This document shows positions 4,085-41,836 of a DNA stretch of 64,000 bases, piece by piece. The number at the start of each line of letters is the position of its first letter. The stretch's first letter is position 1. The stretch lies in the UHGV virus genome UHGV-0371537. The stretch is one strand, 5' to 3'. The notes under the pieces are model-generated. The model was given only the letters and a program-made list of their open reading frames with translations, did no database searches and was not told the DNA's origin. Both the position numbers and the translations under genes were made by a program. This DNA comes from a virus.

Positions 4085-4564
4085 CTAGCCCAGAAACACT
4101 ACTAAAGTCAAACTAGTTTGCAGACCTGGGTTACTTTGGATGATACTCCAGACTTTAGATTGATATGCCGGATCATGCAAAGAGTCTGATACGACCAGGA
4201 CTTTCGGATTTCTGCCGATAAGCACATCACCCTTTTCAAACTGAAATGTGGTGAACGCGTTGTTCATGCCCACTTCTTCACGATTCAAAGTGAGTTTGAT
4301 CGTCTCCTCTTTCGCGAACATAGCTATGACTTCGAGTCCAGTTTCTTCCAAGAATTGTTTTGAAAGAATATGTTTCAGGGCTGTGGAGTGGCCTGTCTGG
4401 CGCAGAAATCGATGATAGATCGCATCGTCACGCCGTAAAAAATCAATTTTTGATTTACCACGACGAAATTCAACAACTTCAAAAGCATCAAGGATCATCT
4501 GAGTGATGAGTTCGATATGTGGGGTGATGGCGATGTTCACATCACGTTTAACCATAGATTTCAT
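4085..4564 (-). CDS. hypothetical protein
   Basis: 159-aa ORF followed by an intergenic hairpin. Confidence 0.5.
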   Translation of the reverse strand: MKSMVKRDVNIAITPHIELITQMILDAFEVVEFRRGKSKIDFLRRDDAIYHRFLRQTGHSTALKHILSKQFLEETGLEVIAMFAKEETIKLTLNREEVGMNNAFTTFQFEKGDVLIGRNPKVLVVSDSLHDPAYQSKVWSIIQSNPGLQTSLTLVVFLG

Positions 4565-4633
4565 TTGGTGTATCCTCAGTTAGGTTCCGCTCATGGGGAA
4601 CGGGTCCATTATACACCGAATGCCGGAAATGAA

Positions 4634-4653
4634 AAAGAGGCCGGAGCCTCTTT
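4634..4653 (-). terminator. terminator hairpin
   Basis: AAAGAGGC-CGGA-GCCTCTTT followed by a T-run on the minus strand. Confidence 0.5.
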
Positions 4654-4681
4654 TAGTCTTCATATTTACCTGTCCTGAAGT

Positions 4682-4882
4682 TCACTTTCGTGCATTCTTC
4701 AGGTCGAGGTCTTTGAAGATATTCCCAAAGATCTTTTGGAATGGGGTCTGCTCTTGTTCTTCCTCAAGATCCTTGGGTTTCTTGACAGGCTCCTTCACCA
4801 TACCACCTTCGGGTTTCCCCACATCGGTGGTAGTGGTGCCAGGGGCTGCCGAGTCTTCAAGAAAGTCCTGGAAGCCCTTCAT
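4682..4882 (-). CDS. hypothetical small acidic protein
   Basis: 66-aa ORF directly downstream of the Ig-like gene (stop/start nearly abutting); a terminator hairpin follows. Confidence 0.35.
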   Translation of the reverse strand: MKGFQDFLEDSAAPGTTTTDVGKPEGGMVKEPVKKPKDLEEEQEQTPFQKIFGNIFKDLDLKNARK

Positions 4883-4884
4883 GA

Positions 4885-5706
4885 TTAGACCACAGCCATT
4901 TCACAACGGGCGGAGGTCACAGAATGGCCATCGGCGTCTTCGACAACACACCAGTATTCACCTTCATCAGCAGCGTCGACTGCAGTGATGACCAGGTTAG
5001 CGGTAGCGGCGGTCGCGTTGGTGCCAGCATCGATAACCACACCTTCACCACCAGGGACATCAGAGAAATACCACACGTAAGTGTAAGGTGTGGTGCCACC
5101 AGAAGCCACAACACTGAAGGTAGCGTCCTGGCCAGCCGTTACGTCTTGGGAAGCCGCGAGGTCTGTAGACAACGCGAGCAGACCAGCCACTGTAATGACA
5201 GTAGAGTCTGTGTGACCGCCTTCGATGGTAACACCGTACACAGTCACAGAACCAGAAGCCAGCAGCTTGAATTTGCCGCCGCCAATGTGAACGGCTTTGG
5301 TCAGATCACCGGAGTACCAGTTCACGCCCTGATATGTGGCATTCTCTGGAGCTACGGTGGCCAACAGTTCAACAATCTGGCCGATTTCGCCGCTTGCTGT
5401 TGCCGGAGTGATGGTCAGTCCAGTGGTCAGTACAGCACTTGGGTCGTGGATTTCGTAAGAGATCTCGAAGCCAACAGGCTTTGTTGGATCCACTTTGGTC
5501 ACACCGTCGGCCTGCAGGTTACTGCGGGTCAGCAGAGCGTCCAGGCCTTTACATTCTGTCAGCACTTCGTCAGGATCTTGGTTCAGGCTGGTCTTCTCCC
5601 AACCCTTGGCAGTGCCTGTAACAACATGCAGGCGTTCAGTTTCCGGTTTGTTGCGAACAACTTCCGGGGCGACTAATACAGTGATCGTTGGCATGGTTTC
5701 CTCCAC
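4885..5706 (-). CDS. Ig-like domain protein (Big_2 / I-set-like), possible capsid or virion decoration protein
   Basis: 273 aa, Thr/Ala/Gly-rich beta-sandwich-like sequence with an I-set-like EGEYWCVVEDADGHSVTS strand motif and TPYTYVWYF. Confidence 0.6.
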   Translation of the reverse strand: MEETMPTITVLVAPEVVRNKPETERLHVVTGTAKGWEKTSLNQDPDEVLTECKGLDALLTRSNLQADGVTKVDPTKPVGFEISYEIHDPSAVLTTGLTITPATASGEIGQIVELLATVAPENATYQGVNWYSGDLTKAVHIGGGKFKLLASGSVTVYGVTIEGGHTDSTVITVAGLLALSTDLAASQDVTAGQDATFSVVASGGTTPYTYVWYFSDVPGGEGVVIDAGTNATAATANLVITAVDAADEGEYWCVVEDADGHSVTSARCEMAVV

Positions 5707-6065
5707 TCATCCAAATCGTTGTTCAGAGCCATCATCAGCTCATTATCTGGTTCATATGAACCGGAACATAAATCATCGCGCCATACGCCGATCGTCAACA
5801 AAGCAGCCTTGAGGCGAGGACGCTGGGTTTCATCTGTTTTCAACACCAACATTCTACAAGCAGCTTCTGCCTCGAACGTGTTGAACACAGTAATCAATTG
5901 ATTAAGAATCAGCCGTGGACTCTTGCCAGGCACAAATCTCTTCAATGATTGATTAATTAGCGAAATCCGCTGTATGTCCACCAACACCTCATCCCATGAG
6001 ACAGAATCAACAATGTAATGCCTCAGAGCATAGTCCATCAGATTGCTTTCGTCAACGATAGCCAT
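5673..6065 (-). CDS. hypothetical protein
   Basis: 130-aa ORF. Confidence 0.4.
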   Translation of the reverse strand: MAIVDESNLMDYALRHYIVDSVSWDEVLVDIQRISLINQSLKRFVPGKSPRLILNQLITVFNTFEAEAACRMLVLKTDETQRPRLKAALLTIGVWRDDLCSGSYEPDNELMMALNNDLDEWRKPCQRSLY

Positions 6066-6095
6066 ATAGAATAAGTTCAGCTGTTGTACACTGGC

Positions 6096-6521
6096 TTATT
6101 TAATCTGCAATTTTTCGATGAGTTGCGCGATCAATGTAATACGGTCTTCAGCAGTGATGCCCAAGGGTGCACCCAACAGCTTCAGATCGTCAACACCCAA
6201 GAGATTCAGAGTCTCTACAGTGATGTTAGTCTCGACCACAGCCCCGGTTTCAAACGGTTTACCGAACTTGTCGCGACCATAACGCTTGAGGGTAGAGGCC
6301 AGCCCCGGAAGCTCCTGAAGGAGTTCCTTCGTACCGTCTTGGTATTTACACACCCATCCGTAGCCGCCAGCGTATACGACGCCTCCGTCTCCCCCCGTAG
6401 GGATGTTGTCGACAGCGCGTTGCAGATACGTTGGAAGAATTCCTTCCTCCTTCGCCTGGATAGCATCAACCGGGGCTTCGGTTTTGGTTTCAACTTTCTT
6501 GACTTCTGGTTTCTTGGCCAT
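6096..6521 (-). CDS. hypothetical protein
   Basis: 141-aa ORF with Lys/Glu-rich N-terminus. Confidence 0.5.
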   Translation of the reverse strand: MAKKPEVKKVETKTEAPVDAIQAKEEGILPTYLQRAVDNIPTGGDGGVVYAGGYGWVCKYQDGTKELLQELPGLASTLKRYGRDKFGKPFETGAVVETNITVETLNLLGVDDLKLLGAPLGITAEDRITLIAQLIEKLQIK

Positions 6522-6795
6522 GTTCGGTTCTCCTATAGACTGTTATGTATTTACCACAGCAATTGCAGCAGTATACATGCATTGCATACCCGTCATCAGT
6601 AAAGTCACAAGCACCACAACGACAAAACAATTTCACGAACTGATCGCCCTGTACTTCGCGTGGTGGAAAGTTCTTGTGGGAGTATTCCCTGGTCTCCCCT
6701 TCGAACTGGAAGGAGTCAACCAGGAACTTGTCTGTCACTCGATGTGGGCCAAATGCTTGTCGGGCATATTTGAAGTAGACGTCGGTGGTTAACAT
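6490..6795 (-). CDS. hypothetical Cys-rich protein (possible zinc-binding)
   Basis: 101 aa with CRCGACDF...CCNCCGKY cysteine clusters. Confidence 0.4.
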   Translation of the reverse strand: MLTTDVYFKYARQAFGPHRVTDKFLVDSFQFEGETREYSHKNFPPREVQGDQFVKLFCRCGACDFTDDGYAMHVYCCNCCGKYITVYRRTEHGQETRSQES

Positions 6796-6846
6796 ATCGA
6801 CCTCAAAGAAAAGGAGGCCGAAGCCCCCTTGTAAGTTTACTGAAGA

Positions 6847-8412
6847 TTACTTGTACAGGCCTGTCACGTCAATCGACTTGTGCTGGCGGTTGTACTCAGC
6901 CGTGTAATCGTCCATCACCATGTATTCACAGCATCGGATTTTGCTGGAGCCATAATCGTTGGTGATAGACACGATGTCACGCGGGTTCAGCTTACAGCGA
7001 ACGACACGCTGTCCCACAGAACCGAAACACTCCTTCAGGTAGGCCAGGGAGCACACATGCAGACCGTATGAACACAGGTCGGAGTTGTTGTCGTTCACGA
7101 ATGAGCGAGCCATCCGCACGATGGTGCCAGGCGCGTTGCTGATCGTGTTGCTGTGCTTGTCCATGTAGTTGCCGCGCACCGATTTGTAGAGGATGATGTC
7201 ACCATCGTCGTCAATTTCGATGTCGGAGTACGCCATGAACTCATAGATGCGCCCGGACTGAACCAGAGCAGCCGACGGGTTCTGGAACATTTTGTCCATA
7301 AACTTCGCCATGCGGTCCAGGTTCTTGAAGTCACCCTTCAGCATCAGCGCCAGTACGCGCTTGGCAATCGAGGTTCCAGTGATGTCATGACCAGACCAAC
7401 GAACGCGATTGTCGGTCACTTCCACCAGACCAGCAGCATACTTCGCGATGGCATCACGAGGCCGCATCAACGAGTAGGCCAGCTTCACGTCTTTGTCTTT
7501 GATCGCCTGTACGATGCGGTCATATGCTGGATGTGAAGTGGTGATCGTTTCCGGCTTGCCATCAATCGCGATTACGACACTGTCCGGCAGAATCAGAATC
7601 TGGTGTTCGTTCAGGAACACGTCCAGGTCTTTCGCGCCGAAGTCCTGCTTGGTCTTCTTGTCATCAGCCACTTCTTCAACGTCTTTGACAGCGACGGTGA
7701 ATTCCACAGAAGACAGAGCCAGGCGCAGGGTGCGACCGAGGATGGCATCGAAGTAACCAACACGGCGACGGGCATCTAAGGATCCACGGATAGGATAGGT
7801 TTCCCCGTCAACCACAACGCCGATTTCAACGTTGCTTGGAACTTTGTCCGCACCTTCCGACAGCGCGACAGAAATTTCTGCCATTTTACCGATAGCTTCA
7901 ACGCCGAAAGCACGGCTGTTGCCTTCCACTGCAGTCAGTTCAGACTTTTCAAAGAAAGCCCCTGTAAAATTGCCGCCGTCGGTGAGACACAGATACTTGT
8001 TGTGGTTCGGTAGATATGCCCCAACATACCATTCTGAGCCATCTTTGTCTTTGGCTGTTCCACCCGGCTGGACTTCGAATACTTCCTGCTCTTCCGGTTT
8101 GATAGGAGAGATCACAGTTACCTTGTTTTCCTCCTCGGTAATGCGGACCAACAGAGCTCGAGCAATGGTCTTGGCGGACACACCGTACACCTTGGCCAGG
8201 AATGCATTGCTGGCATTACCTGTCGCCGAATCCCTTTGGATATTAGCGATCTGGTCTGTTGTCAGAGATTTCAGCGATAACGGGTTGACACCGAGTTCCG
8301 TGTCTGCAACACGTTGTACAGTCGAGCGGGGTATGCCCAACAGAGTAGCAATTGCGCTCTGGCTCATGCCGTCCTTCAAATACTTGAGGATCTTTTCGTC
8401 AATCTTGTTCAT
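6847..8412 (-). CDS. rIIB: rIIB protein
   Basis: C-terminal region (HSNTISNAPGTIVRMARSFVNDNNSDLCSYGLHVCSLAYLKECFGSVGQRVVRCKLNPRDIVSI) aligns with the T4 rIIB C-terminus as I recall it; N-terminal HTH (MSQSAIATLLGIPRSTVQRV). Start moved to the internal ATG (MNKIDEK) 32 nt downstream of the rIIA stop. Confidence 0.85.
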   Translation of the reverse strand: MNKIDEKILKYLKDGMSQSAIATLLGIPRSTVQRVADTELGVNPLSLKSLTTDQIANIQRDSATGNASNAFLAKVYGVSAKTIARALLVRITEEENKVTVISPIKPEEQEVFEVQPGGTAKDKDGSEWYVGAYLPNHNKYLCLTDGGNFTGAFFEKSELTAVEGNSRAFGVEAIGKMAEISVALSEGADKVPSNVEIGVVVDGETYPIRGSLDARRRVGYFDAILGRTLRLALSSVEFTVAVKDVEEVADDKKTKQDFGAKDLDVFLNEHQILILPDSVVIAIDGKPETITTSHPAYDRIVQAIKDKDVKLAYSLMRPRDAIAKYAAGLVEVTDNRVRWSGHDITGTSIAKRVLALMLKGDFKNLDRMAKFMDKMFQNPSAALVQSGRIYEFMAYSDIEIDDDGDIILYKSVRGNYMDKHSNTISNAPGTIVRMARSFVNDNNSDLCSYGLHVCSLAYLKECFGSVGQRVVRCKLNPRDIVSITNDYGSSKIRCCEYMVMDDYTAEYNRQHKSIDVTGLYK

Positions 8413-8443
8413 CTTGTAGTTCCCACGTTGGTTAACAGGGTTA

Positions 8444-11200
8444 TTATGCCCTGATAATGGAATTTGAAATAACGTCCAAGTAATCCGAAGAATTTTCAAT
8501 CGGGTTCAGGGCGCTTGGTTTGTAGTTCTCTTTCAAGAACCGGACAACACGATGTCGCTCAATAGTCATTCGGTTATCTCGTCTTGCTTTCTTCGTTGGC
8601 GTGCGCAGAATATCAAACGGCGTAAATCCGTGAGACCGCAATACATCTGAAGCATAGCCAAAGATCTGCAGCATCTGGTGTTCTGAACGGAAGATCTTTT
8701 CGTCACGCTCGTTCGCGTACAAATTCACGTTAAGAGAACTTATCGTGTCCTGGAAATGGCTGAAGCGGCGCTTGTCATGGACCGACACCGGGGCTTTCGC
8801 CAGGCTTTGGTAATGACGTACAGTCTGCTCATCCAAGATACCGTCTACAACTTTCATTAACTTGTTGTAACGACTGACCAATTTGCCATAACGATCATCT
8901 TCAACATCACCAAACGCCTGATGAACCAGATGGCTCCCGTATTTTAATCGATCCGTCCCAAGGCGCATGCGACGATGTGATTTCAATATGCGCTGGGCGC
9001 TATCACGCTCCATCATCGGCTTCACGTTTTCCAACATGATCTTCAGAATCTCATCAATCGGAATGAAGACCTCTGGGAACTTCTTCATCATTGGCACGGA
9101 TTTACGACGAGCCAAGAAGATTCGGTTGTGAACGTTCAACATATCGCTGATGTACACTGGCTTGCCTTCATCGTCGACACTGACTGCGTGTTCATATAGA
9201 GATTTACGAATACCCCGCGCCGTCGCCGTCGTCAACGTTCTGTCCATCACCTGATGGATACACTCATGGCCAGACACCTCAATGTAGACGATGCGCTCGC
9301 CCTTGTTGATAATATCTGAGATCTGGTCGCCCGTCAGTTCTTCTTGCAGGCAGATATCGAAGTTGCTGGACGTGAACGGAAACAGGCCAGGGTCTTTGGT
9401 GACCGGAGGCGTGACATATGTCAGTTCGTTCATGAACTTAACTTCAGCAGGCTCCAGCACCGCACTCAGCCAATCGACGAACTTGTCAGCGAAGCACAGA
9501 TAATCAACCGTCGTTTCTTCTTTGCCAATCCAAGTTTCAAAGAAATCATAGAGAGCCTGAGCATTCTTGAACGCAGGGTTGTCCTTAGATTGGTTGCGCT
9601 TGGTGACATAGGATGTGTTCGGCTTGGCCACGATGACCATCGTCCCTGTATCTTTCAGCTGTTTGATCTTCAGATTACGGGCACGAACACTGTCTTCGAT
9701 CACCACAGTAACATGCTGTCCGCGATCGATCCACTTCTGGATTTCTGAAATGGTCAAAGTACCGGACTCACCCCAGTCATAGAAGATCTCCATGGAGAAC
9801 GGTGACGACAGTTCATTGAACGGCGCTGTATGGTCATAGTCACGGTCGATCTCAACAGGCAGCGGGTAACGATAATATGAATCGTGGAAGCGCTTGTCCG
9901 CCGGATATTCCTTTTCAACCATCTTACGGAAGCCACTACCGAACATTTCGCTCAGTTTTGCCTTCTCCATATACAGGGCAAGAGGACCACGATTACACGC
10001 CAGCTCCAGGTCGCGCATCTTTTCTGTCAGGATTGCATTGGCGGTTCCCTTAAACTCCTCAGAGAGCGTCTCGCGGGTGAATTCGTCATACGACAGGTCT
10101 TCACGCGACGGCGGTACGTTCAGCGAGCCGAGTTCAAAGAATGTATAGGAGCACGGGAACTTGCTCATGATAGAGGCAGTTTCCGGGTCCAGCTGGTCCA
10201 GGTCAATCGGGTATGACACACCGCCCATCACAGCATAATGGGTGTTACCCTGACCTTTCGGCTGAATGTACGTGTTGTTGACCTTGAAGTCATAGCTGAT
10301 GTCTTCCCAGCCGAAGCGGTATGAAGCGTTCTCAACAATTGGGCGGTGTTCAGGGCGCATGACGCGGCCAAGACGAACCAGCTCGTCAGAGAAAGCAGAG
10401 AAGCGAGCGTTCTTCACCGGGATCTTCACCGTCATGCCGTTGAATTCATCGGTGTCTTCTGGTTTAGGATCACGAGTTTCAAGATCTTTGGTGATCAGGT
10501 CAACCGTTGGGATGCGCTTGGCGTTCAGATACATCAGGAAGCGATGAAGTTTGCCGTCCATGCGACTTTCCACCGTGAACGAATCTGATACCGCAAATGG
10601 TGATTTGGAGCCAAGGCCGAATGCCCCGATCTGGTCATCGTCTTCTTCCTTGGTACTATGGAAGAGTGTCGTGTACAGGCCTGGGGCGCGGATGATCTCG
10701 CCATCTTCACGGCGGAAGACAAGTACCCCATTGTAGAAGCCTGGGACGCCAATGACTTCAGCTGAGTCGGGAATCTCGTCTTCCTTCACGACCATGTTGC
10801 CTTCCAACAGCACTTCATCTTCCTGAGCCGGGATAGCCTCGCCAATGATCTTCTCAAGCGGCAGGCCGATACCATAATCACGGATTTCCAGCCATGGTTC
10901 GAAGTCATCAGGTAGATGTACGACAACCTGCTTACCCTTCGGTGCCAGGTATTTGCTATGGCGGGCAGGAGGCGGAGTGAGAGGCGCGTAGTGGGATGCG
11001 ATCATGCGATGCATACGATCACGCATGCCATGGGAGTCGATGGCGTTACAGACGGTTTCACGCAGGGCTGCAGCCTCTTTATAACGATACAATGATGAGA
11101 ACAGAGTCTCAAACATCTTATCGTTCATCTTCACGTTGAACGCCTGCCCCTGAATGGAAGACGACGAGCGGATAAAGTGCTCGGACTTGCGCATTTTCAT
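8444..11200 (-). CDS. rIIA: rIIA protein (GHKL-type ATPase N-terminal domain)
   Basis: 918 aa; N-terminal LRETVCNAIDSHG resembles the rIIA / histidine-kinase-like N-box; immediately upstream of rIIB as in T4-like phages. Confidence 0.85.
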   Translation of the reverse strand: MKMRKSEHFIRSSSSIQGQAFNVKMNDKMFETLFSSLYRYKEAAALRETVCNAIDSHGMRDRMHRMIASHYAPLTPPPARHSKYLAPKGKQVVVHLPDDFEPWLEIRDYGIGLPLEKIIGEAIPAQEDEVLLEGNMVVKEDEIPDSAEVIGVPGFYNGVLVFRREDGEIIRAPGLYTTLFHSTKEEDDDQIGAFGLGSKSPFAVSDSFTVESRMDGKLHRFLMYLNAKRIPTVDLITKDLETRDPKPEDTDEFNGMTVKIPVKNARFSAFSDELVRLGRVMRPEHRPIVENASYRFGWEDISYDFKVNNTYIQPKGQGNTHYAVMGGVSYPIDLDQLDPETASIMSKFPCSYTFFELGSLNVPPSREDLSYDEFTRETLSEEFKGTANAILTEKMRDLELACNRGPLALYMEKAKLSEMFGSGFRKMVEKEYPADKRFHDSYYRYPLPVEIDRDYDHTAPFNELSSPFSMEIFYDWGESGTLTISEIQKWIDRGQHVTVVIEDSVRARNLKIKQLKDTGTMVIVAKPNTSYVTKRNQSKDNPAFKNAQALYDFFETWIGKEETTVDYLCFADKFVDWLSAVLEPAEVKFMNELTYVTPPVTKDPGLFPFTSSNFDICLQEELTGDQISDIINKGERIVYIEVSGHECIHQVMDRTLTTATARGIRKSLYEHAVSVDDEGKPVYISDMLNVHNRIFLARRKSVPMMKKFPEVFIPIDEILKIMLENVKPMMERDSAQRILKSHRRMRLGTDRLKYGSHLVHQAFGDVEDDRYGKLVSRYNKLMKVVDGILDEQTVRHYQSLAKAPVSVHDKRRFSHFQDTISSLNVNLYANERDEKIFRSEHQMLQIFGYASDVLRSHGFTPFDILRTPTKKARRDNRMTIERHRVVRFLKENYKPSALNPIENSSDYLDVISNSIIRA

Positions 11201-17638: not shown

Positions 17639-17838
17639 TTTGGTTCCTTGAATATTTTGTAACCAGCAGCGCCGATAGACATCACCGCGCCAATACAGTA
17701 CATCACAGTCACGTTCAACTTCTCTGAGGTTGTTAAGTCCAGAGGGGTGAAATGATAGGCTAGGGCAGCGCACATTGAAACGGCTACCATAATCAGGCCG
17801 ATGAACAACAGATAATTAGACAACCGCTTCATGATCAC
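17635..17838 (-). CDS. small membrane protein (two TM helices)
   Basis: 67 aa, LLFIGLIMVAVSMCAALAY and VMYCIGAVMSIGAAGY hydrophobic segments. Confidence 0.4.
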   Translation of the reverse strand: MIMKRLSNYLLFIGLIMVAVSMCAALAYHFTPLDLTTSEKLNVTVMYCIGAVMSIGAAGYKIFKEPK

Positions 17839-18749
17839 CCCTTCTTCATCAGGTCAAGGAGAGAGCGCGACGCTGCCTTCGGTGCTTCTGTCTGGGCACT
17901 CGCCTTGGTTTTAGTTTTGGATGCCTTCTGCGGCTTCTCAGGCACTCTGTGCGCCAAAGGATCCTCACCACCGACCTCACGGGTCATTGGGTCGGTCTCA
18001 CAGAAAGCATAGAAGTCTTTGCTGTAAAACCCATACGCTCGAGTTTCGTCCAATTGATGGTGGATAGCATTACCAACCACCCACAAAGGAGCATCGAACG
18101 GAAGGATAGCCACTTCTGAATTTGTCGGTGATTTGAACTCCTGAGTGTTGGTTTCCGGTGCTTTATACAGAATGTCCTGCCCGCTGTAGTTGTCAACCAC
18201 AGGGGTGAAGCCCAGCGCCAGCATTTCGGCCTTCGACTTCTCAAACTCCTTGGAGTAAGATTCGTTGCGAGACCAGCCGGAGTCCCCTGCTTCTTTACCA
18301 GAGCGACCACGGATGCGGGCATCGTACTGATAGCGGTCGGGGTACGCAAAGTACAGCAGCGCCAATGATTCAATCGGATAGTTCTTGAACATCCACTCAG
18401 GACGCCATTTGTCCGACAGCATGAGGGGTTCGCCCTCACACACCAGGGTGTAACCCTGAGCCAGCCAGCCTTTGACCAGGTCACGAGCGATATCACCCGA
18501 GCCTGTGGCAGCATGAATGGCGTCCATGGAAGTCCAGGAAGCCAGGCCGGATTTGTTGGACACAGTGTACTGGCCGACGAAGATCAACTTCAGCTCTTCG
18601 AATTTCAGGCCAAACGGGCGCGTCTTGTCACCAATGGTGTAGGTGAGTTCGGTAGGCTCCAGCTTAGTGCGCAGCCATTCGATGAACTGAACCACTCTCG
18701 TACCCTTGCCCGTGGCCGAGGTGCCTTTCACTACAATTATTTTAGCCAT
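17835..18749 (-). CDS. P-loop kinase (Walker A GTSATGKGT); candidate nucleotide or DNA kinase
   Basis: 304 aa with N-terminal Walker A motif IIVVKGTSATGKGT; no resemblance to T4 dNMP kinase or Pnk in my recollection. Confidence 0.6.
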   Translation of the reverse strand: MAKIIVVKGTSATGKGTRVVQFIEWLRTKLEPTELTYTIGDKTRPFGLKFEELKLIFVGQYTVSNKSGLASWTSMDAIHAATGSGDIARDLVKGWLAQGYTLVCEGEPLMLSDKWRPEWMFKNYPIESLALLYFAYPDRYQYDARIRGRSGKEAGDSGWSRNESYSKEFEKSKAEMLALGFTPVVDNYSGQDILYKAPETNTQEFKSPTNSEVAILPFDAPLWVVGNAIHHQLDETRAYGFYSKDFYAFCETDPMTREVGGEDPLAHRVPEKPQKASKTKTKASAQTEAPKAASRSLLDLMKKG

Positions 18750-19427
18750 TTAATATTCTCCAACCGAGACATGTTTTAGCCCTACCTTTCAAGAGATTCG
18801 TTATATTACCGGAAGGGAGGCCATATTGAAGTTCCATATCGCATCTTCTTAACTCAACAATGCGACCATCTTTGTGCTGCCATTTGTAAATCGTTTCATC
18901 GCGGCCAGGACCAATGTCTATCAGGCCAAGAGCATGCAGCCTCTTCCTAGTTTCCCCTCCACGCGTTTGAGATTCAGAGGAAGGTCTTGGTGGTTTGGGG
19001 ATCTTCCCTTCTGACATCAATTTGCTTATGATCTTACCCTTTCTGGCTTGTGCTTCAGGGGTGAGTCTTGGTGGAGGTTTAATCTTACCTTCAGCGATCA
19101 AACGTTTGCGGGTTGCGGCGCTCTTTGCGGATGACTCTGGCGTGGCCAATGGAGGCTCCCACCACCGACGACCATATTGTAGCACCACCCAGAGTCAAGG
19201 ATCTCCTGACAGACCAGTTCAGACTCTATCTCAAGGATAACTGATTCCTTCCCTCGGAACAGAACTTCAAACGTGAACTGGTCTTCACCATATTTCTTGA
19301 ACGCTCGTTGTAATGCAATGCTCCCCTGACCACACTTATGCTCAGCCAACCGCCTATCCGGTTCTGAAGTGACACCGATATAGAATTTATGATTGACGAG
19401 ATTCGTGATCAGGTAGAGCGACAGCAT
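18742..19427 (-). pseudogene. GIY-YIG homing endonuclease (Seg-like), disrupted by a frameshift into two ORFs (19098..19427 GIY-YIG domain; 18742..19188 NUMOD3-like repeats plus C-terminal DNA-binding region)
   Basis: ORF 19098..19427 carries LYLITNLVNHKFYIGVT...RRLAEHK (GIY-YIG); ORF 18742..19188 in another frame carries repeated GKI-x-x-PP / GKIISKL NUMOD3-like motifs; the two overlap by about 90 nt. Confidence 0.55.
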
Positions 19428-19732
19428 TACACAGCATCCTCAATACGCCAGCTCACGCCGCCCATCCATGGTGCCCAGAATACAGCAACCTGTGGGCGGC
19501 CATTCTCTTCAAACTTCACTTTATACTGGTCGTCGAAGTTATAGAAGATTTCATCCGCTTCAGAGCGCTGGCCGTTCTCCACCAGTGCTTCATGGAGAGC
19601 CTTGGCTGCGCCGATCGGAGTCGGAGTCTCCTGCTGGCGAATGAAGTTGTTGACATGGATAATCACGCCATCCATATCGCTATCACCGGAACGCTTGTCT
19701 GGGGTTTCCCCGAACTTATTCTGTTCTTGCAC
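19427..19732 (-). CDS. hypothetical protein
   Basis: 101-aa ORF. Confidence 0.45.
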   Translation of the reverse strand: MQEQNKFGETPDKRSGDSDMDGVIIHVNNFIRQQETPTPIGAAKALHEALVENGQRSEADEIFYNFDDQYKVKFEENGRPQVAVFWAPWMGGVSWRIEDAV

Positions 19733-19741
19733 GATGTCCTC

Positions 19742-20521
19742 CTATCGGACGTATTGATAATGACGAATCAGGCGATTTGCCACTTCAACAATATTGTGAT
19801 TCAGAGAGTGGAAGTGGTTCTGGCCTTCTACTGGTTTAATATAAAGCATATCTTCCGAGTTCGAAAGATCCAGTTTTTCATAATTGCCCTGAGGAACAAA
19901 GATGACGAAGATGTTGTTCAGGCCGCACGGCTCGACATACTTCGGATTGTCGTCAATCAGGACATCGCCAGCCAGCAGATGCTTTTCGTCGGTGCTGACG
20001 AACCCGTTGAAGATGCCAGGGAACTTATCGTAGACAAACTGGCGTTTGCTGCGCTCATGCTCCGGCTCACATTTAGACACCGCAACGAATTCAACATTGT
20101 CGAAATCTTCAAGCAGAATCTTCTTCAGATTCACCAGGAATTCAAAAGCGCCAGGAAGCGGGTTCATCTTGGTATACAGATCAGGGCGACGCCACCAGTC
20201 CATAGGATCACGCCCTGTGGGAGCATACATCCATTTCCCAGCGAGGTACACGCGGCGTATCAACCACGCCGGATGTGCACGTTCGCGCATCAGGATAGCC
20301 AGGTCGCCAGCATGAGCCATATAGCACTCTTTGGTGATCGGCTGGAACTGGAAGGACTTTTGGTCGCCAGTTGCGAGAGCCGCCGCAGCGATGTTCTCTT
20401 CGTTGAACCACTGAACCCAAGGGGACAGGCTATCAACCAACGTCAGGTCAACATCCACCAGAACACGATACAGACCGCCGACCTTTGATTTCATATCATA
20501 GATACAAACCAGATTGTTCAT
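19742..20521 (-). CDS. HAD-superfamily phosphatase / nucleotidase (putative)
   Basis: HAD motif I VLVDVDLTLVDS near the N-terminus; start set at the ATG (MNNLV) that overlaps the upstream stop in an ATGA arrangement. Confidence 0.6.
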   Translation of the reverse strand: MNNLVCIYDMKSKVGGLYRVLVDVDLTLVDSLSPWVQWFNEENIAAAALATGDQKSFQFQPITKECYMAHAGDLAILMRERAHPAWLIRRVYLAGKWMYAPTGRDPMDWWRRPDLYTKMNPLPGAFEFLVNLKKILLEDFDNVEFVAVSKCEPEHERSKRQFVYDKFPGIFNGFVSTDEKHLLAGDVLIDDNPKYVEPCGLNNIFVIFVPQGNYEKLDLSNSEDMLYIKPVEGQNHFHSLNHNIVEVANRLIRHYQYVR

Positions 20522-20868
20522 TTGTCTTCCTCCACTTTGTCGTAACCAGTGGCAACACACTGCTCTTCAGTGCAATCAGCGTACAGAACAACAGACGCCT
20601 GCTTCACATAGGTGGTGCAGTGGTAGGTTTCGTCTTCCTGAATGGAATCGTCATAGTTGCAGACCGTCTGCAGAGGTCCAGGGGTGGTGTTGTCCAGCGC
20701 TGCATGAGCCTTGATGGTATCTTCCATCTTGGATACAGCTTGTTCGTTGGTGAACGTCGGCGCGTCAAGGTCTACAGTAGACGCAACGTCCAGAAGGGTA
20801 GAGCATGCGGTGGTAGAGAAAGCCAGAGCGCACACCAGAAGAATCTTATTGAGTTTCATTTCAATCAC
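20518..20868 (-). CDS. small secreted protein or lipoprotein
   Basis: 116 aa with signal-peptide-like N-terminus MKLNKILLVCALAFSTTACS. Confidence 0.5.
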   Translation of the reverse strand: MIEMKLNKILLVCALAFSTTACSTLLDVASTVDLDAPTFTNEQAVSKMEDTIKAHAALDNTTPGPLQTVCNYDDSIQEDETYHCTTYVKQASVVLYADCTEEQCVATGYDKVEEDK

Positions 20869-20921
20869 CTGTTTGTCAAAGGGTTAACAGGGGGAATTAT
20901 ATCCCCCTTTGGTTTATTGAA

Positions 20922-23921
20922 TCAACCTTTCTTCTTTTGCATCATGGCAAGAAGGTTCACACGGCGCTTGTGTGACCAGCCGACCACGTCAAGGATAGAC
21001 TGAATCGGATCAATGAAGGACTTCTCAAAGGCCGCCTGATAATCTACCCATTTGCCCAGACCAAGCTCCTCAGGGAAGAACTCAGGATATGCAAAGTAGT
21101 TCTGCCCAAACGGGTTGCCCGGCTTCAACAACACCATCTGCACCTTATCACCCGACTCAATCATCGGTAGACCCAGTTCTTCGTTCTTCTCGACCAGACG
21201 GTTGTAGCCAACACAAGCCTTGGCAGCGAAGTGAGCACCGGAGATAAACGAGCCGTCGGAGGCCACACACTTCTCTATGTCGGATACGCCGGATGCCTTG
21301 GCGATATCGTCTACGGAGAGTTTCATGTACTCCTCTTTGTAACCACTAATGAGAGTCTGTACTTCCTCTTCGGTGCCGAGTAGGATCTTCTCATAGCACT
21401 TGACAAGACGCTCACGACACCATTCCGGCGTGGTGGACTTACGGGCTTCCAGGCCTTTGAACTTAATCTTCGGCTTCTCGTACTTGATCCCCTCACTGTC
21501 GTACACAGCCATGGCATACATCTTCTTGGCTCGCCAGACAGCGGCTGACGCAATGACCTCTCGCTCCCACACCATGCGTTGTTCGAAGCCGTTCATGGTG
21601 TCACACAGAAGCTGTGCCCACTCATTGGTCTTCGGCTGGTAGTTGTCTTTGATCCATTGGTCGATATTATCAACCATAGCATGATGGTCAGTAACATCAG
21701 GCCACAACTGCTTAACAAGACGCTCAATGCAGATGTAGTTGGAGTCGGTATCACCTGCGATGACGAAGTCCTGGCCTGTTGTACCACACAGCTTGTTCAG
21801 ATAGTCATCAGTGTAACGCTTGTTCCACTTGTTGATCAGCTGACCGGATGTGGTGATGGCTTCGGCAATGTTGAGGTTGAAGTACTCTTTGAACCAGACG
21901 TTTGAGATCGCGCCATAACCTGCGTTCATCAAGATCTTCAGACCTTGCTGAAGGGTATCTTGAGCAACACCCAGGTCTTCCCACTTCTTCATCACTTCGG
22001 TCAGGGCATCAAGATCAATGTTCTTGTGCTCTTCATACCACTCTGGGTCATAGTAGCGAGACTTCATGGCAGACTCAAGATGGAAGTCGCCCTTCGACAT
22101 CTCTTTACACCAACCAGCCCACTGCTCGTATTTCAGACCCTTGGCTTTCTCCACTTTACGGTCGCTGTAGATACCGCGCATGATTTCAGACAGGAACGAC
22201 ATCTTCTCGTTGCTGAAGAACTGTACGTTCGGTGTGAAGGACACGTTGTAGCGGCGCAGGGTTTCAAAGCGGAACTCACCCAGAGCAACCAGTTCGTCAA
22301 CAACCTGCAGGCGTTCGTCAATCGCACGCAACAGCTTGTCGTGAAGGGCTTTCATCAACCGACGTTTGTGCATCGGCGTTGCCATGTTATTCATCTGAGC
22401 AGCCAGCTCTTCACACATCGCCTCAATGATTTCGCGGCGTTTGTGTTTGTCTTCAACGATGGTCTCTGGACCGAGGTTGTACTGCTGAATGATGTGAGGA
22501 TAAAGGGAGTTCAAGTCCTCTGAGAAGACCCAGAAGTAGATCCCTGGCGTGACCTCCATGACGTATGCGCCCTCAAAATCGGTCGGACCATCGTATACAC
22601 GCTGGATCTTAGGCACGATGCCCTTCTCATACAGACGATAGTAGCACATGGCCAGCCAGGGTGCCACTGTGCCAAGGCCGTCTTCATAGTTCGACTTGGT
22701 GCGGTACGCAAGGACGAACATCAGCTGGAGCAGACGCAGCTTCTGTTCGAGACGCCACACCAGCTTGACGTCCTTGATACCATATCGGGTGTGTTTGGCA
22801 TAGTCGTTGAAGTACAGGTCAAAGAGGGACTTGCTCTCACTGTAGTCCATCTTCTTCTCACCCAGCTCACAGTAAGCAATCCAATCAAGAGAGTAACGCT
22901 CACGGGTGGTGTACGTGTGCTTCTTGTAGATCTGCATGTAGTCGAGCATAGGACAGCCCACGAACTGATACGTCGTGATATCGCCCTTCTTATCGCGAAT
23001 GATACGCTTCTTGATGATACCCCAAGGACTGAGGCGCGATGTTTCGGCTTCACCCAGAACCTGGTTCATGCGCTCAACAAGATACGGGCTATCGAACGTT
23101 TCAATGTTCCAGCCTGTCCAGCCATCAAACTGACGCTGTGACCAGAAGTCAAGGAAAGATCGCAGCAGATCCTGCTCGGTGACAAACTCCTTGTACTCCA
23201 CCTCAAGTCCACCGATCTCCGCGTCTTCTGGATCGTATCTGAACTTCGCACGATCCTTCGCGCACGGCATACCCCACACCATGAACTTATTGGTCGCCAT
23301 GTCCTGAAGCTGGATGAGCGTGATGGGGAACGCTGCATTCATGTCCTGGGTGATCTTGCCATTGCTATCAATGATAGGGAACTGGTCGGTCACGTTGTTG
23401 CTGATAAAGGAACTGGGAAAGTGCTCACGGATGAAGTCATGGTTGGCCAGTACCTGCTGATGGAAGCGGCGGATGCGTGCCTCGCTACCTTTGAACGTCT
23501 GCTGCTCAATAGTCGGATGAGGGAATGGACCCTTGGTCATCTCCCCGTCTTTCCACCCAGCGGTGAACACTTCGATATCGAGGTTAGCAATATGGATGTT
23601 GGAGTAATCCGGCTCAATCTTTCCAGGGAAGCTGTGGGCGATGAACTGGTATGCATAATCGGTCTGCCCGTAAATGGCTGCACCCTGGACTTCCTTGTAC
23701 TCTTCAAGGTAGTTGTCAGCAGTGCGCATGTCAGGGAACTTCTTAGAGACCAGGGGTTCGTTGAGCAGGCCGACCTTTTCAACATTTGAATAATCAGCCG
23801 TGGGTAAATAGAGAGTGGGTTCGAATTTCTTTTTCAACAGACGGCGATTACCCATGTCATCTGCGATTCGAATCAACAGGTCATTGCCCCGGCGGGCAAC
23901 GTTCGTATAGAAGACGGTCAT
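20922..23921 (-). CDS. gp43: DNA polymerase, family B (T4 gp43-like), with 3'-5' exonuclease domain
   Basis: 999 aa; exo motif IANLDIEVF, pol motif A DLNSLYPHII, motif B KILMNAGYG, motif C VIAGDTDS. Confidence 0.92.
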   Translation of the reverse strand: MTVFYTNVARRGNDLLIRIADDMGNRRLLKKKFEPTLYLPTADYSNVEKVGLLNEPLVSKKFPDMRTADNYLEEYKEVQGAAIYGQTDYAYQFIAHSFPGKIEPDYSNIHIANLDIEVFTAGWKDGEMTKGPFPHPTIEQQTFKGSEARIRRFHQQVLANHDFIREHFPSSFISNNVTDQFPIIDSNGKITQDMNAAFPITLIQLQDMATNKFMVWGMPCAKDRAKFRYDPEDAEIGGLEVEYKEFVTEQDLLRSFLDFWSQRQFDGWTGWNIETFDSPYLVERMNQVLGEAETSRLSPWGIIKKRIIRDKKGDITTYQFVGCPMLDYMQIYKKHTYTTRERYSLDWIAYCELGEKKMDYSESKSLFDLYFNDYAKHTRYGIKDVKLVWRLEQKLRLLQLMFVLAYRTKSNYEDGLGTVAPWLAMCYYRLYEKGIVPKIQRVYDGPTDFEGAYVMEVTPGIYFWVFSEDLNSLYPHIIQQYNLGPETIVEDKHKRREIIEAMCEELAAQMNNMATPMHKRRLMKALHDKLLRAIDERLQVVDELVALGEFRFETLRRYNVSFTPNVQFFSNEKMSFLSEIMRGIYSDRKVEKAKGLKYEQWAGWCKEMSKGDFHLESAMKSRYYDPEWYEEHKNIDLDALTEVMKKWEDLGVAQDTLQQGLKILMNAGYGAISNVWFKEYFNLNIAEAITTSGQLINKWNKRYTDDYLNKLCGTTGQDFVIAGDTDSNYICIERLVKQLWPDVTDHHAMVDNIDQWIKDNYQPKTNEWAQLLCDTMNGFEQRMVWEREVIASAAVWRAKKMYAMAVYDSEGIKYEKPKIKFKGLEARKSTTPEWCRERLVKCYEKILLGTEEEVQTLISGYKEEYMKLSVDDIAKASGVSDIEKCVASDGSFISGAHFAAKACVGYNRLVEKNEELGLPMIESGDKVQMVLLKPGNPFGQNYFAYPEFFPEELGLGKWVDYQAAFEKSFIDPIQSILDVVGWSHKRRVNLLAMMQKKKG

Positions 23922-25347: not shown

Positions 25348-25365
25348 CATATGGGGTATTTAGGC
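25348..25365 (-). promoter_or_regulatory. late-promoter-like CTAAATACCCCATATGG upstream of the acidic protein gene
   Basis: Minus-strand reading GCCTAAATACCCCATATGGCTAAC about 30 nt upstream of the ATG at 25324. Confidence 0.45.
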
Positions 25366-25824
25366 TTCCCGCACTGCCAGGCCGGGTTTGTACAGAACGA
25401 TCTCACGAACCATAGGCAGACCAACACGGTCAAGAATGATCGTGGAGTCGTAGCCCTGGGAGATTAGCTCGGCGGCGTTCTCATGGATCTTACCCGGTTC
25501 GATACCAAGTTCACGCATAGCGTCTTCCCAGGCCGAAACATTATTAGAGTCGAGTTCGAGGGGCTTCTTAACACTGACGTTAAACACCAGAACATGGGGT
25601 TCACCGCTCTGGCGATAGCGAACGGCGTTCTCAGCATAGCGCTGCGCCTCTTCTTCGTTGCCTGTCAGATAGAACCCAGGTCCCATCGTACCGCAGTCAG
25701 TCTGGCCGAAGCGCTCAAAGTCGAAGACATCGAATTCTACGTTGGAGCCGTGAAAGAGGCGCATGTTACCGAACTTGGGTTCAGCCTCAGACGCCTCTTT
25801 AAGATATTCAAGAAAGGTTTTCAT
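25360..25824 (-). CDS. capsid-targeted mini protein with PARP-like (H-Y-E type) ADP-ribosyltransferase motifs
   Basis: N-terminus MKTFLEYLKE resembles the T4 internal-protein capsid targeting sequence (MKTYQEFIAE); downstream LFHGS, GPGFYLT and VREIVLY spaced like PARP H-G-S, G-x-G-I-Y-F and N-E-Y-I-V-Y; late-promoter-like CTAAATA plus inverted repeat immediately upstream. Confidence 0.6.
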   Translation of the reverse strand: MKTFLEYLKEASEAEPKFGNMRLFHGSNVEFDVFDFERFGQTDCGTMGPGFYLTGNEEEAQRYAENAVRYRQSGEPHVLVFNVSVKKPLELDSNNVSAWEDAMRELGIEPGKIHENAAELISQGYDSTIILDRVGLPMVREIVLYKPGLAVREA

Positions 25825-38754: not shown

Positions 38755-41736
38755 ATGGCTAATAAACCAACACAGCCTGTTTTCCCTCTCGGTCTGGCGG
38801 CTGAAGAGCAGTCTACTTTGGCTGGTGTCCTCAACACGGGTACGATTGAGCATGGACCAGATGCTGTCCTGACTTTACCAGAGGGTAATGCCAGCGCAGG
38901 ACTCCCGTCTTCCGTTCGCTACAATGCCGACTCCGACGAATTTGAGGGCTTCTATGAAAATGGTGGATGGTTGCCGCTGGGTGGCGGTGGTATCCGCTGG
39001 GAAGTCCTTCCGCATGCCTCTACGGCAACGCTCACTGAAGGGCGAGGCTATCTCATTAATAATACCACAGGGGCATCTACAGTGGTTCTCCCTTCCCCTA
39101 CGCGTATTGGGGATTCCGTTACTATTTGTGATGCTTATGGGAAATTTGCCACTTACCCATTGACCGTGTCTCCTTCTGGAAATAATTTGTATGGCTCCAC
39201 TGAAGACATGGCTATAACAACTGATAACGTATCAGCAACGTTCACTTGGTCTGGACCTGAACAAGGTTGGATTATTACATCCGGCGTCGGTCTTGGCCAA
39301 GGTCGTGTCTACAGTCGTGAAATCTTTACAAAAATTTTGGCGTCTGAAACAAGTTCTGTCGCTCTCAATACTCCACCAACAATTGTGGACGTGTATGCTG
39401 ACGGAAAACGTCTTGCGGAATCCAAATATTCACTAGATGGGAATGTAATCACTTTCAGTCCTTCTTTGCCAGCCAACACAGAACTTCAGGTGATTGAATA
39501 TACTCCTATTCAATTGGGTAATGTCAGTGGTTCTGGTTCTTCTACGATTACCTGGGTCTATAATGGGGGTTCAGCGATTGGTGGTGAAACCGAAATCACG
39601 TTGGACGTCGTTGTTGATGATGTTCCGGCCATTGATATAAACGGAAGTCGCCAGTATAAAAATCTGGGATTCACATTCGATCCATTAACCAGTAAAATCA
39701 CTCTTGCGCAAGAACTGGAACCAGAGGATGAAGTTGTTGTAATTATCAATGGAACACCAAACATCTATAATCAAATTGATTATACTTTGCGGGAAGTTGC
39801 TCGAGCAACCAATGTTAAAGATACAGAGGTCGTTTATTTTAGTGTTGGTGCTGCGTTAAGTGGGTATAAAGTTATTTATGACAAGGAGACGCAAAGGGCT
39901 TATCCCTTGCCTGCTGATATTGTCCCTGGTACTACTGCTGTCAGTCTTAGTTCTTCCGCTATACTTGTGCATTCTGCTGGTAGTGTTGATCTGGGCGCAT
40001 TAGCTGTATCTCGTGAAGAATATGTTACATTGTCTGGGACATTTGATTCTGGTGCTGTCATCAATGTTAAAAATGAATTACTCACCCATACTGATGGAAA
40101 GTATCGTTGGGATGGTACACTTCCTAAAACCGTTGCTCCTGGCTCAACTCTTATGACAACAGGCGGCGTTGGTGTTGGCGCATGGATTAGTGTTGGTGAT
40201 GCTTCATTGAAGTCAGAATTGGCTAAACCTACAGGAGCAGGTTTTTCAGGTTTTGATAAGTCAATTGATTACGAAACTGGTACTGTTGGCAATGCGCTTA
40301 AGAAAATTATAAATGTCAACCCGGATATGTATCCATCATTACAGGATGCGATTGATGCTGCGGCAGCTTTAACAGGTTTAGAACATGCACCAAGTAGTGC
40401 TGCTAACCATCCTGACTGGCTACAACCTAACACTGTAAGCAAAGTTATCAGGCTGAATGGGAAGAAATATCCTATCAGTACGACACTACACATTCACGGA
40501 GATGTTAGCATTGATGCTGGTTTCGGTGGGGTGTACCTCACCGATGACTTCGTTGCAGACTCCTCTGGCTATGCTGTTAAATGCGATAAAGGGACGGGTA
40601 ATCAATACGCTGGGCATATCAGCAACTTATTAATTGATGCCCGTGCAAAAACTGTTAATGGGTTTAAGATATCCGATGGCTATGCTAACAAGTTAGAAGG
40701 CATTTACGTAGCCAACGTTGATGGTCATGGCATCCATATTGCTGGCGGTATGGGTGTGCACCTATTGAAGTTTTATGCTGTTGGTGTATTAAAACCAACT
40801 AATCCGCTCAGCACAGCCCACATTGTTGAAGGTAGCGATCATCAGGTTAGCATGGGTGAAGGTCGTTATTTCCGATTTGGTACCTGGGTTCGTGGTGGTG
40901 GTAATAACAGAATTGGTAAGGTGCACAACTGGGGCATGTATGACGATACAGTCACCGACCAGAACTCAAGGATGAAATGCTGCTTTGTTGTACAGAACTC
41001 AATAAACAATTCCTTCAATCAATGTTTTGCAGATTCTCCATCAAAATGGGACTACACGAAAGCTAATTTAGATCCTGTAGATGGTTATATTAACGGCGGG
41101 ATTGGTTTTTTTATTGATGGTGGAGCCACCGGTAATACGTTCTCTCAATGCCAGACGTTTGTGAATATGAATGCGTTTAATGACGCAGGGTTATCTGCAT
41201 ATGCGGCATCACTAATGCCATTCGCCGTTGGCAGTATCAATTGCTCATTCATTGAGTGTGAAAACTCAAACTCACCAGCATGGGTGGCAAGACTGATAAC
41301 TCATATTTACTCTGTGGATCAGGCATTTACTAACATACTCGCAGCTAAGAATTTTGTTGGTATAGAGTATGATATGGTTTGCAATGGTACAATTTTCAGG
41401 AAAAATGTTGGAGTTCCTGTATTGGTAAGAAATTCAAAGTTCGAGACGCCAACAGCAAGTTATGCGCCTAACTTTTCAGACGCATCTTACATCGCAGCTA
41501 CAGTTACAGGAGATGTAACAATAACACCAGCAGTATTAACAAATACACTAATTGGTTATGTTGAGGTTCTTTTGGCTGTCTATTCAACAACATCTAAAAC
41601 AATAACATTTGGTGCAAATGTTATATTAGCAAGTAGTACCCCATCTTTGACAGCAGCTGGAACACAAGTTTTTAGGTTGTCAACAACTGATGGAGGAACG
41701 ACTTGGTTCTGTAAGTTCGAGAGTGCTTACCCGTAA
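38755..41736 (+). CDS. tailspike / tail fibre protein, paralogue 4 (extended N-terminal anchor region plus shared module plus distinct C-terminal domain)
   Basis: Contains the about 150-aa module shared by all four paralogues (VVYFSVGAALSGYKVIYDKETQRAYPLP...GKYRWDGTLPKTV...GAWISVG); Gly/Asn-rich C-terminal region; start set to the ATG after the inverted repeat (ORF track begins at 38725). Confidence 0.75.
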   Translation: MANKPTQPVFPLGLAAEEQSTLAGVLNTGTIEHGPDAVLTLPEGNASAGLPSSVRYNADSDEFEGFYENGGWLPLGGGGIRWEVLPHASTATLTEGRGYLINNTTGASTVVLPSPTRIGDSVTICDAYGKFATYPLTVSPSGNNLYGSTEDMAITTDNVSATFTWSGPEQGWIITSGVGLGQGRVYSREIFTKILASETSSVALNTPPTIVDVYADGKRLAESKYSLDGNVITFSPSLPANTELQVIEYTPIQLGNVSGSGSSTITWVYNGGSAIGGETEITLDVVVDDVPAIDINGSRQYKNLGFTFDPLTSKITLAQELEPEDEVVVIINGTPNIYNQIDYTLREVARATNVKDTEVVYFSVGAALSGYKVIYDKETQRAYPLPADIVPGTTAVSLSSSAILVHSAGSVDLGALAVSREEYVTLSGTFDSGAVINVKNELLTHTDGKYRWDGTLPKTVAPGSTLMTTGGVGVGAWISVGDASLKSELAKPTGAGFSGFDKSIDYETGTVGNALKKIINVNPDMYPSLQDAIDAAAALTGLEHAPSSAANHPDWLQPNTVSKVIRLNGKKYPISTTLHIHGDVSIDAGFGGVYLTDDFVADSSGYAVKCDKGTGNQYAGHISNLLIDARAKTVNGFKISDGYANKLEGIYVANVDGHGIHIAGGMGVHLLKFYAVGVLKPTNPLSTAHIVEGSDHQVSMGEGRYFRFGTWVRGGGNNRIGKVHNWGMYDDTVTDQNSRMKCCFVVQNSINNSFNQCFADSPSKWDYTKANLDPVDGYINGGIGFFIDGGATGNTFSQCQTFVNMNAFNDAGLSAYAASLMPFAVGSINCSFIECENSNSPAWVARLITHIYSVDQAFTNILAAKNFVGIEYDMVCNGTIFRKNVGVPVLVRNSKFETPTASYAPNFSDASYIAATVTGDVTITPAVLTNTLIGYVEVLLAVYSTTSKTITFGANVILASSTPSLTAAGTQVFRLSTTDGGTTWFCKFESAYP

Positions 41737-41798
41737 AACTAACCCCCTCTTCGGCAGGGTTCTTGTTATACCTTTGTTCATAAATTTATTAGTTCAGC

Positions 41799-41836
41799 CT
41801 AAATACCCCATATTGGTCATCCTTTATGGGGTATTA
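41799..41836 (+). promoter_or_regulatory. late-promoter-like CTAAATA plus inverted repeat (TACCCCATA / TATGGGGTA) upstream of tailspike 3
   Basis: Near-identical to the module at 44337-44373. Confidence 0.5.

Follow-up and report, generated by a model that had tools for sequence, protein, structure and literature searches.

The intronless homing of endonuclease genes, the co-conversion of the DNA that flanks them and the promoter-less nature of the seg cassettes have been described for phage T4, in which the defunct I-TevIII provides a precedent for the degeneration phase of the homing cycle (PMC2988022). Among the endonucleases listed for Dickeya phage LIMEstone1 is F-LimXI, a free-standing enzyme of the GIY-YIG type (PMC3296691). 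An orthologous gene is found in a 64,000-nucleotide (nt) stretch of the virus genome UHGV-0371537 (hereafter, the window), which is part of an Ackermannviridae phage genome (ViI-like, closest to Agtrevirus) and is ~90–95% identical to Shigella phages Ag3 and ChubbyThor, Salmonella phage P46FS4 and Escherichia phage AV101. This gene is a free-standing, Seg-like (I-TevI-type) GIY-YIG homing endonuclease gene, orthologous to the 'SegD-like'/F-LimXI genes of Agtrevirus, Kuttervirus and Limestonevirus phages (in Dickeya phage XF4, the matching gene bears the annotation F-LimXI), and its reading frame is broken by one missing base. The gene family is already known and annotated, and only this allele is defective or mis-sequenced. 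The missing base probably reflects a genuine and very recent inactivation of the endonuclease (probability roughly 0.65), a knockout that would be ordinary biology and would involve no new mechanism.

The closest described systems are the F-LimXI/'SegD-like' genes of LIMEstone1, Ag3 (gp199), ChubbyThor (gp25), AV101, and P46FS4, allotria, maane and other Salmonella phages among them, which occupy the same locus between the DUF7254 gene and the HMUD2 kinase gene, have the same junctions, and share 84–97.5% nucleotide identity with the window copy over the whole gene. Once repaired, the window protein is 98–99% identical to the nearest of these relatives; the difference is that they carry a single open reading frame (ORF) of 228 amino acids (aa), whereas the window copy, minus one A, is divided into ORFs of 109 and 148 aa. 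The position upstream of the HMUD2 kinase is kept in all loci, and as orthologues at 62% identity adjoin the same kinase in Vibrio phages, the association between endonuclease and kinase is old.

The likeness to the Seg enzymes of T4 (SegA–G) lies in the N-terminal GIY-YIG domain, with 30–43% identity to SegB/SegD-type proteins over ~90–170 aa that are mostly catalytic domain, in the two-domain architecture, in the arrangement as a promoter-less cassette between conserved genes and co-oriented with its neighbours, and possibly in a co-conversion-like homogenisation of the flanks (PMC2988022). The window gene differs from them in that its C-terminal half lacks detectable similarity beyond the linker and in that it is frameshifted. 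I-TevI, the endonuclease of the T4 td intron, has the same catalytic fold, with the Tyr, Arg, His, Glu and Asn positions kept and a flexible linker from ~residue 91–92; unlike I-TevI, however, the window gene is free-standing and not intron-encoded, it has no evident zinc finger in the linker, and its C-terminus is weakly I-HmuI NUMOD-like. Selfish endonuclease genes that are dead in single lineages and intact in relatives include the I-TevIII remnant of T4 and the 'truncated SegB-like protein' of phage RB51 (PMC2988022; RB51 from its annotation). The lesion in the window differs from these in being a single base without further decay, and it is consequently either much younger than those remnants or an artefact.

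A missing base at the boundary of two domains

The endonuclease interval of the window is one nucleotide shorter than the 687-nt single ORF present in 22 of 22 phage records that carry the gene. The missing nucleotide is an A in codon 91, AAG (Lys) in the relatives, whose loss turns GGTGGGAAGCC into GGTGGGAGCC and leaves a single A at 19157 (T when read on the plus strand). Alignment to intact relatives, proposed in the original prediction as the way to find the exact frameshift, locates it unambiguously: a single 1-nt gap is found at alignment column 271, where the window reads GGTGGG-AGCC and all ten nucleotide comparators (ChubbyThor, P46FS4, Ag3, AV101 and six copies from metagenome and read-archive assemblies) read GGTGGGAAGCC. 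In the four named phages the interval is one annotated ORF of full length, called 'putative endonuclease', 'homing endonuclease' or 'SegD-like protein'. Restoring the A yields a 228-aa protein with a full-length match to phrog_19446 (homing endonuclease, E = 3e-105), in which residues 1–228 correspond to profile positions 1–236 of 254. Similarly, when the Ag3 protein is used as a tblastn query, its residues 1–90 align in frame −3 with 100% identity and end at 19158, and residues 91–228 follow in frame −2.

In all relatives found, the base is kept and the gene is a single ORF of 226–245 aa. These relatives comprise 22 phage records, 6 loci from metagenome or read assemblies, 3 contigs from IMG/VR and 24 protein clusters; the clusters, drawn from a database of 5.8 billion proteins, are full length (226–245 aa) in 24 of 24 cases. 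A scan of IMG/VR, JGI metagenomes and GTDB genomes that permitted either allele returned three hits, all of them IMG/VR contigs and all with the intact allele. No second copy of the deletion was found in exact-sequence look-ups of ORF1, ORF2 (the 109-aa and 148-aa frames, respectively) and seven other window proteins, which matched only a 101-aa DUF7254 protein on a different, endonuclease-free contig. No other genome found shares this lone 1-nt deletion. Besides this deletion, the window copy of the endonuclease gene has no private nucleotide, all others also being present in some intact relative, and the frame downstream of the deletion is fully open and 98–99% identical to the intact proteins.

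The original prediction, in which a frameshift separates the catalytic from the DNA-binding part of a GIY-YIG homing endonuclease, is borne out, as are the two ORFs in different frames with an overlap of about 90 nt (19098–19188, 91 nt). Residues 1–90 of ORF1 constitute a complete GIY-YIG catalytic domain (PF01541, E = 1.1e-8, 35.7 bits vs a Pfam cutoff of 22.6) in which Y5, Y16, G18, R26, H30, E68 and N84 are present; these residues are invariant among 16 homologues and all lie upstream of the break, and R26 and H30 align to R27 and H31 of I-TevI. ORF1 then ends in a 19-aa out-of-frame tail, SLHWPRQSHPQRAPQPANV, that is unrelated to the relatives. ORF2 is homologous only from ~19157 downwards (residues 92–228 of the intact protein), and this part is predicted to comprise the complete linker, including its three helical repeats, followed by a small beta/helix module for DNA binding at the C-terminus.

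This division is based on an AlphaFold model of P0014, an intact relative that is 99% identical (mean predicted local distance difference test, pLDDT, of 83). The top Foldseek match of the model in the PDB is the catalytic domain of I-TevI (1mk0, 1ln0; probability 1.00, template modelling score 0.69–0.71 normalised to the target), and the model confidence dips after the invariant G88-G89-G90, to a pLDDT of 59 over residues 91–100. The modelled secondary structure continues with helices at 97–112, 124–139 and 151–166, an extended segment at 180–194 and a helix at 195–213, such that the linker consists of three repeated helices of ~16 residues each with a repeat of ~25 aa. The C-terminal module has a weak match to I-HmuI (Foldseek probability 0.87), and the extreme C-terminus gives a sub-threshold hit to an I-HmuI NUMOD-like profile (E = 0.03–0.06). 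The helical repeats had been labelled as NUMOD3 repeats, a label that profile searches do not confirm, as neither ORF2 nor the repaired protein has a Pfam hit to NUMOD3 (PF07460) even at E ≤ 10; repeats of ~25 aa are visible nonetheless.

The break at codon 91 falls directly after the G88-G89-G90 that ends the I-TevI-like catalytic fold, and hence at the boundary between catalytic domain and linker. In all relatives the catalytic and DNA-binding parts reside on one polypeptide of 228 aa, and in the window they are in different frames. The ratio of nonsynonymous to synonymous substitution rates (dN/dS) of the family is ~0.1–0.2, indicating that the intact copies are under purifying selection that maintains their function. 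Judged by its sequence, the window copy is a defective allele of this GIY-YIG homing endonuclease family and not a functional member of it.

The linker-repeat region of the endonuclease (18940–19090, alignment columns ~340–490) occurs as two very divergent haplotypes, one in the window, ChubbyThor and AV101 and the other in Ag3 and P46FS4, and for the DNA-binding half (codons 91–228) dS is ~0.5–0.6 and dN ~0.1. The catalytic half recombines independently of it: in the window it is identical to that of Ag3 at 270 of 270 nt, and the DNA-binding half is like that of ChubbyThor and AV101. The differing linker types could mean a different target spacing or specificity. The idea that the deletion marks a recombination breakpoint was dropped, as comparison with the closest copy (L011) gives no breakpoint near column 271.

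Insertion site, flanks and kinase alleles

The genes around the endonuclease are all on the minus strand, in the order DNA polymerase, DUF7292, NT5C-type deoxyribonucleotidase, DUF7254, endonuclease and HMUD2 kinase (Table 1). The endonuclease gene is present in 22 of 236 phage records that match the neighbourhood, and many relatives are without it. Its presence or absence is a polymorphism at one precise site between DUF7254 and the kinase, with identical junctions. In occupied genomes, the sequence TAATG combines the stop of DUF7254 (TAA, 19429–19427) with the overlapping ATG of the endonuclease (19427–19425). In the empty sites of SKML-39, EspM4VN, PhiSH19 and the Logan contig of run ERR11525716 (L005–L008), the same TAATG joins the DUF7254 stop directly to the kinase start, and the GAGGA ribosome-binding site at 19441–19437 therefore serves the kinase as its own in these genomes.

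At its other end, the element terminates in ...GGAGAATATTAAATGGCTAA, where the start of the kinase gene (ATG, 18749–18747) overlaps the end of the endonuclease gene (TAA, 18744–18742). A GGAG (18761–18758) inside the element lies 8 nt upstream of the kinase ATG and can serve as a kinase ribosome-binding site. The cassette would thus take over the original ribosome-binding site of the kinase and supply a replacement of its own, which matches the promoter-less seg cassettes of T4 (PMC2988022). A scan for promoters and terminators over 17800–21000 gave promoter-like sites no more often than expected by chance, and none that was informative for the endonuclease gene.

Table 1. Positions of the endonuclease gene, its parts, its junctions and its neighbours in the window
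Feature	Position	Strand	Remarks
DNA polymerase gene	20922–23921	−	uninterrupted, 999 aa
DUF7254 gene, upstream neighbour	19427–19732	−	Pfam E = 2.2e-53; 'putative thioredoxin' in the annotation of relatives
Whole homing endonuclease gene, defective allele	18742–19427	−	686 nt; in relatives 687 nt, i.e. 228 codons plus stop
5-hydroxymethyldeoxyuridine (5-hmdU) DNA kinase gene, downstream neighbour	17835–18749	−	Pfam HMUD2, E = 8.6e-158
ORF1	19098–19427	−	109 aa, ATG start; TGA at 19100–19098
ORF2	18742–19188	−	148 aa when called mechanically from GTG 19188
Deletion site	19156–19160	−	GGG 19160–19158, lone A 19157, G 19156; GGGAAG in relatives
TTG codon, Leu94 of the intact protein	19147–19149	−	in the ORF2 frame; read from the sequence
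Upstream junction, TAATG	19425–19429	−	occupied and empty junctions compared
Downstream junction, ATGGCTAA	18742–18749	−	kinase start overlaps endonuclease stop

Changes private to the window, counted per kb against eight endonuclease-carrying relatives, are most frequent in the NT5C gene (36.6), followed by DUF7292 (25.6) and the ADDT-like gene (18.7). They are rare in DUF7254 (3.3 per kb, 1 in 306 nt), the HMUD2 kinase gene (2.2 per kb, 2 in 915 nt) and the endonuclease gene (1.5 per kb, which is the deletion itself). This tract of low divergence over DUF7254, endonuclease and kinase suggests a co-conversion-like event, as homing would produce.

At its 5' end (~60 nt, 18690–18749), the kinase gene comes in two allele classes, most of whose differences are synonymous. 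The kinase start reads ATGGCTAAAATAATTGTAGTG in all endonuclease-carrying genomes examined, a class that also provides the stop codon of the endonuclease, and it reads ATGGCAAAGATCATCGTAATC in three of the four endonuclease-free loci. Most endonuclease-carrying genomes further share a synonymously recoded P-loop region, in which Ag3 and P46FS4 differ. By these patterns the 5' end of the kinase gene is the best candidate for the target or immunity region of the endonuclease and for the region of co-conversion. A clean 'immune allele' signature at this end was considered and is suggestive only, given that the occupied-type allele recurs in ~12 endonuclease-free phages. Taken together, the precise insertion, the translational coupling on both sides, the low-divergence tract and the alternative kinase 5' alleles present what looks like a clean textbook case of intronless homing in Ackermannviridae, one that could direct experiments towards the target site of the enzyme.

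Two neighbouring genes carry frame disruptions in other phages. The kinase gene of P46FS4 (L002, NC_049509.1, ~2028–2242; compare ~18690–18749 of the window) has a 1-nt deletion of its own in the P-loop region, reading GGGAAAGGTACG where GGGTAAGGGTAC or GGGCAAGGGTAC is found elsewhere; this lesion falls inside the stretch proposed above as the endonuclease target and co-conversion tract, and the record annotates a shortened 'guanylate kinase' of 693 nt vs ~915. In Enterobacter phage EspM4VN (L007, 2565–3340; compare 19742–20560 of the window), the NT5C gene is annotated as two overlapping 'parts', and is thus another frameshifted gene of this neighbourhood.

Probable recent inactivation and its alternatives

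The way in which the intact element works is proposed here by analogy with its family. As a promoter-less cassette between DUF7254 and the kinase, it would in a mixed infection produce a nuclease that, by means of its flexible linker and DNA-binding module, cuts an endonuclease-free allele, probably at the 5' end of the kinase gene, and recombinational repair would copy the endonuclease gene together with its flanks into the cut genome. In the phage represented by the window, the cassette and ~1.2 kb of flanks look recently acquired by such homing. One base would then have been lost, and the normal start would now yield the nuclease domain followed by 19 junk residues, with no DNA-binding part. 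Such a nuclease domain, lacking its targeting module, would be expected not to locate its target, and the element should no longer be able to home. As no decay has followed the deletion, the event would be very recent. The expression of the kinase need not suffer, since it retains its own GGAG and ATG, and the genome should stay protected from intact copies in other phages because both the insertion and the occupied-type kinase 5' allele are retained. The locus is appropriately annotated as a frameshifted (pseudo) homing endonuclease, or as a repaired one if the deletion is an error, and not as two hypothetical proteins; beyond annotation, the significance is small.

Inactivation is favoured by the context of the lesion. 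Frame disruption is found in only one of the 63 Ag3 proteins that match the 64-kb window, namely the endonuclease, and the shared genes that tblastn with Ag3 proteins aligns in a single frame include ORFs of 1612, 999, 918 and 736 aa. This being the sole split among 63 shared genes, the assembly does not appear to be indel-prone, and the chance that a single random error would strike this 686-nt gene is ~1%. A selfish gene fixed in a lineage is, moreover, where a frameshift would be tolerated, as in the degeneration phase of the homing cycle. The context therefore leans towards a real mutation over an error.

Several points weigh against a genuine inactivation. The family's cleavage activity, target site and homing are attributed to it by analogy with the T4 Seg enzymes, and the kinase 5' allele tracks the endonuclease imperfectly: CBA120, Det7, SJ3, S8, SKML-39 and other Kuttervirus and Agtrevirus phages, a dozen or so in all, have the ATGGCTAAAATAATTGTAGTG allele without the gene. 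These phages could be resistant variants, or lineages after precise loss of the element. The deletion, for its part, is a feature of the consensus sequence, and the gene has no private change besides it; an artefact would look identical. Read on the plus strand, the lost base is a T, and this phage family hypermodifies thymidine, a modification that can disturb some sequencing chemistries.

These last points are shared by the rival that survives best, a sequencing or assembly error, which is less likely yet carries most of the remaining probability. According to this explanation, the phage truly has GGGAAG (GGGAAGCC) and encodes the whole 228-aa endonuclease, the consensus having lost one base. 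The deletion is the sole difference not common to some intact relative, the frame beyond it is completely open and nearly identical to the intact proteins, and it recurs in no other public contig found, all as an error would have it; a missing thymidine in a phage with 5-hmdU-modifying enzymes could furthermore have provoked a local base-calling error. However, the homopolymer that the original prediction had suggested as the context for such an error is not there, the missing base being one A of an AA dinucleotide after GGG. The frame is unbroken in all other genes shared with Ag3, which limits the error rate to at most ~1 per 50–60 kb, and a lone error would have had the above ~1% chance of falling in the one obviously dispensable selfish gene, precisely the kind of gene in which real frameshifts are expected to survive.

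It is also conceivable, though very improbable, that the deletion is real and the locus remains active, either as a DNA-binding fragment that binds the target or operator site and acts as protector or repressor, or as a two-piece nuclease, with the fragment started from TTG 19149 or from GTG 19188. Because the break coincides with the domain boundary, both fragments are complete folding units, and by turning GGGAAG into GGGAG the deletion creates a Shine-Dalgarno-like string 6 nt upstream of the in-frame TTG (19149–19147). The DNA-binding domain of I-TevI binds DNA alone, and the full I-TevI protein is an autorepressor. The isolated GIY-YIG domain of I-TevI, on the other hand, is without target affinity, TTG starts are weak, and the position at the boundary was noticed post hoc, with a ~4–5% chance that a break would fall within 5 codons of that boundary. 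As the split occurs once and in no other genome, there is no evidence of selection for splitting. The more specific proposal, that the deletion makes two separately made parts, most plausibly a stand-alone DNA-binding fragment from the conceivable start at TTG 19149, is slightly more doubtful still. If true, such a fragment could occupy the recognition site and, for example, guard co-infecting genomes against intact relatives or repress expression locally; a selfish nuclease would then be at an early stage of domestication.

Programmed recoding, in which a −1 ribosomal frameshift or transcriptional slippage would yield full-length endonuclease at a low level as a form of regulation, is the least credible of all and appears essentially refuted by the comparative data: although a −1 shift anywhere in the 91-nt overlap restores the frame and homing endonucleases are often made at very low level, all homologues are single-frame and the frameshift is not conserved, a shift away from the deletion site would insert non-homologous residues, and the overlap contains no slippery heptamer X_XXY_YYZ when every codon pair of the ORF1 frame is read, no slippage-type A/T run longer than 3–4 nt and no stimulatory RNA structure (19040–19175, minus strand, −34.1 kcal/mol vs a shuffle mean of −34.7, z = 0.16). 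The original prediction had asked for the heptamer search and had ranked a programmed frameshift below a decaying element or a sequencing error; with one of 63 shared genes broken and no recoding signals, that ranking stands.

Other features of the window and its relatives

A second gene that is probably a free-standing homing-endonuclease-like gene lies among the transfer RNA (tRNA) genes of the window, as a 220-aa ORF (31117–31779, minus strand) with sub-threshold Pfam matches to Phage_endo_I (E = 3e-5), DUF7487 and NUMOD3 (E = 2e-3); the corresponding region of Ag3 lacks it. In L015 (Logan SRR10902857 contig, 4324–8506), the DNA polymerase is called as pieces of 477 and 542 aa around a 292-aa ORF, an interruption that looks like an intron or endonuclease insertion, as with I-LimII and I-LimIII of LIMEstone1 (PMC3296691).

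The tRNA region of the window also contains a 449-aa ORF (29403–30752, minus strand) that has a YadA-like membrane anchor at its C-terminus (PF03895, E = 1.1e-13) and further includes an alanine-zipper-like segment. A protein of this trimeric-autotransporter type is unusual in a lytic phage, and it has no Ag3 counterpart among the tblastn matches of Ag3 proteins. A 154-aa ORF (25360–25824, minus strand) carries an ART-PolyVal ADP-ribosyltransferase domain (PF18760, E = 2.2e-10), and is found in some relatives (L012) and not in Ag3. The tailspike region (39800–47800, plus strand) is characterized by four paralogous N-terminal modules, at ~39793, 41839, 44860 and 47080, and its distal parts are unrelated to those of Ag3, which is the usual exchange of host-range cassettes in Ackermannviridae.

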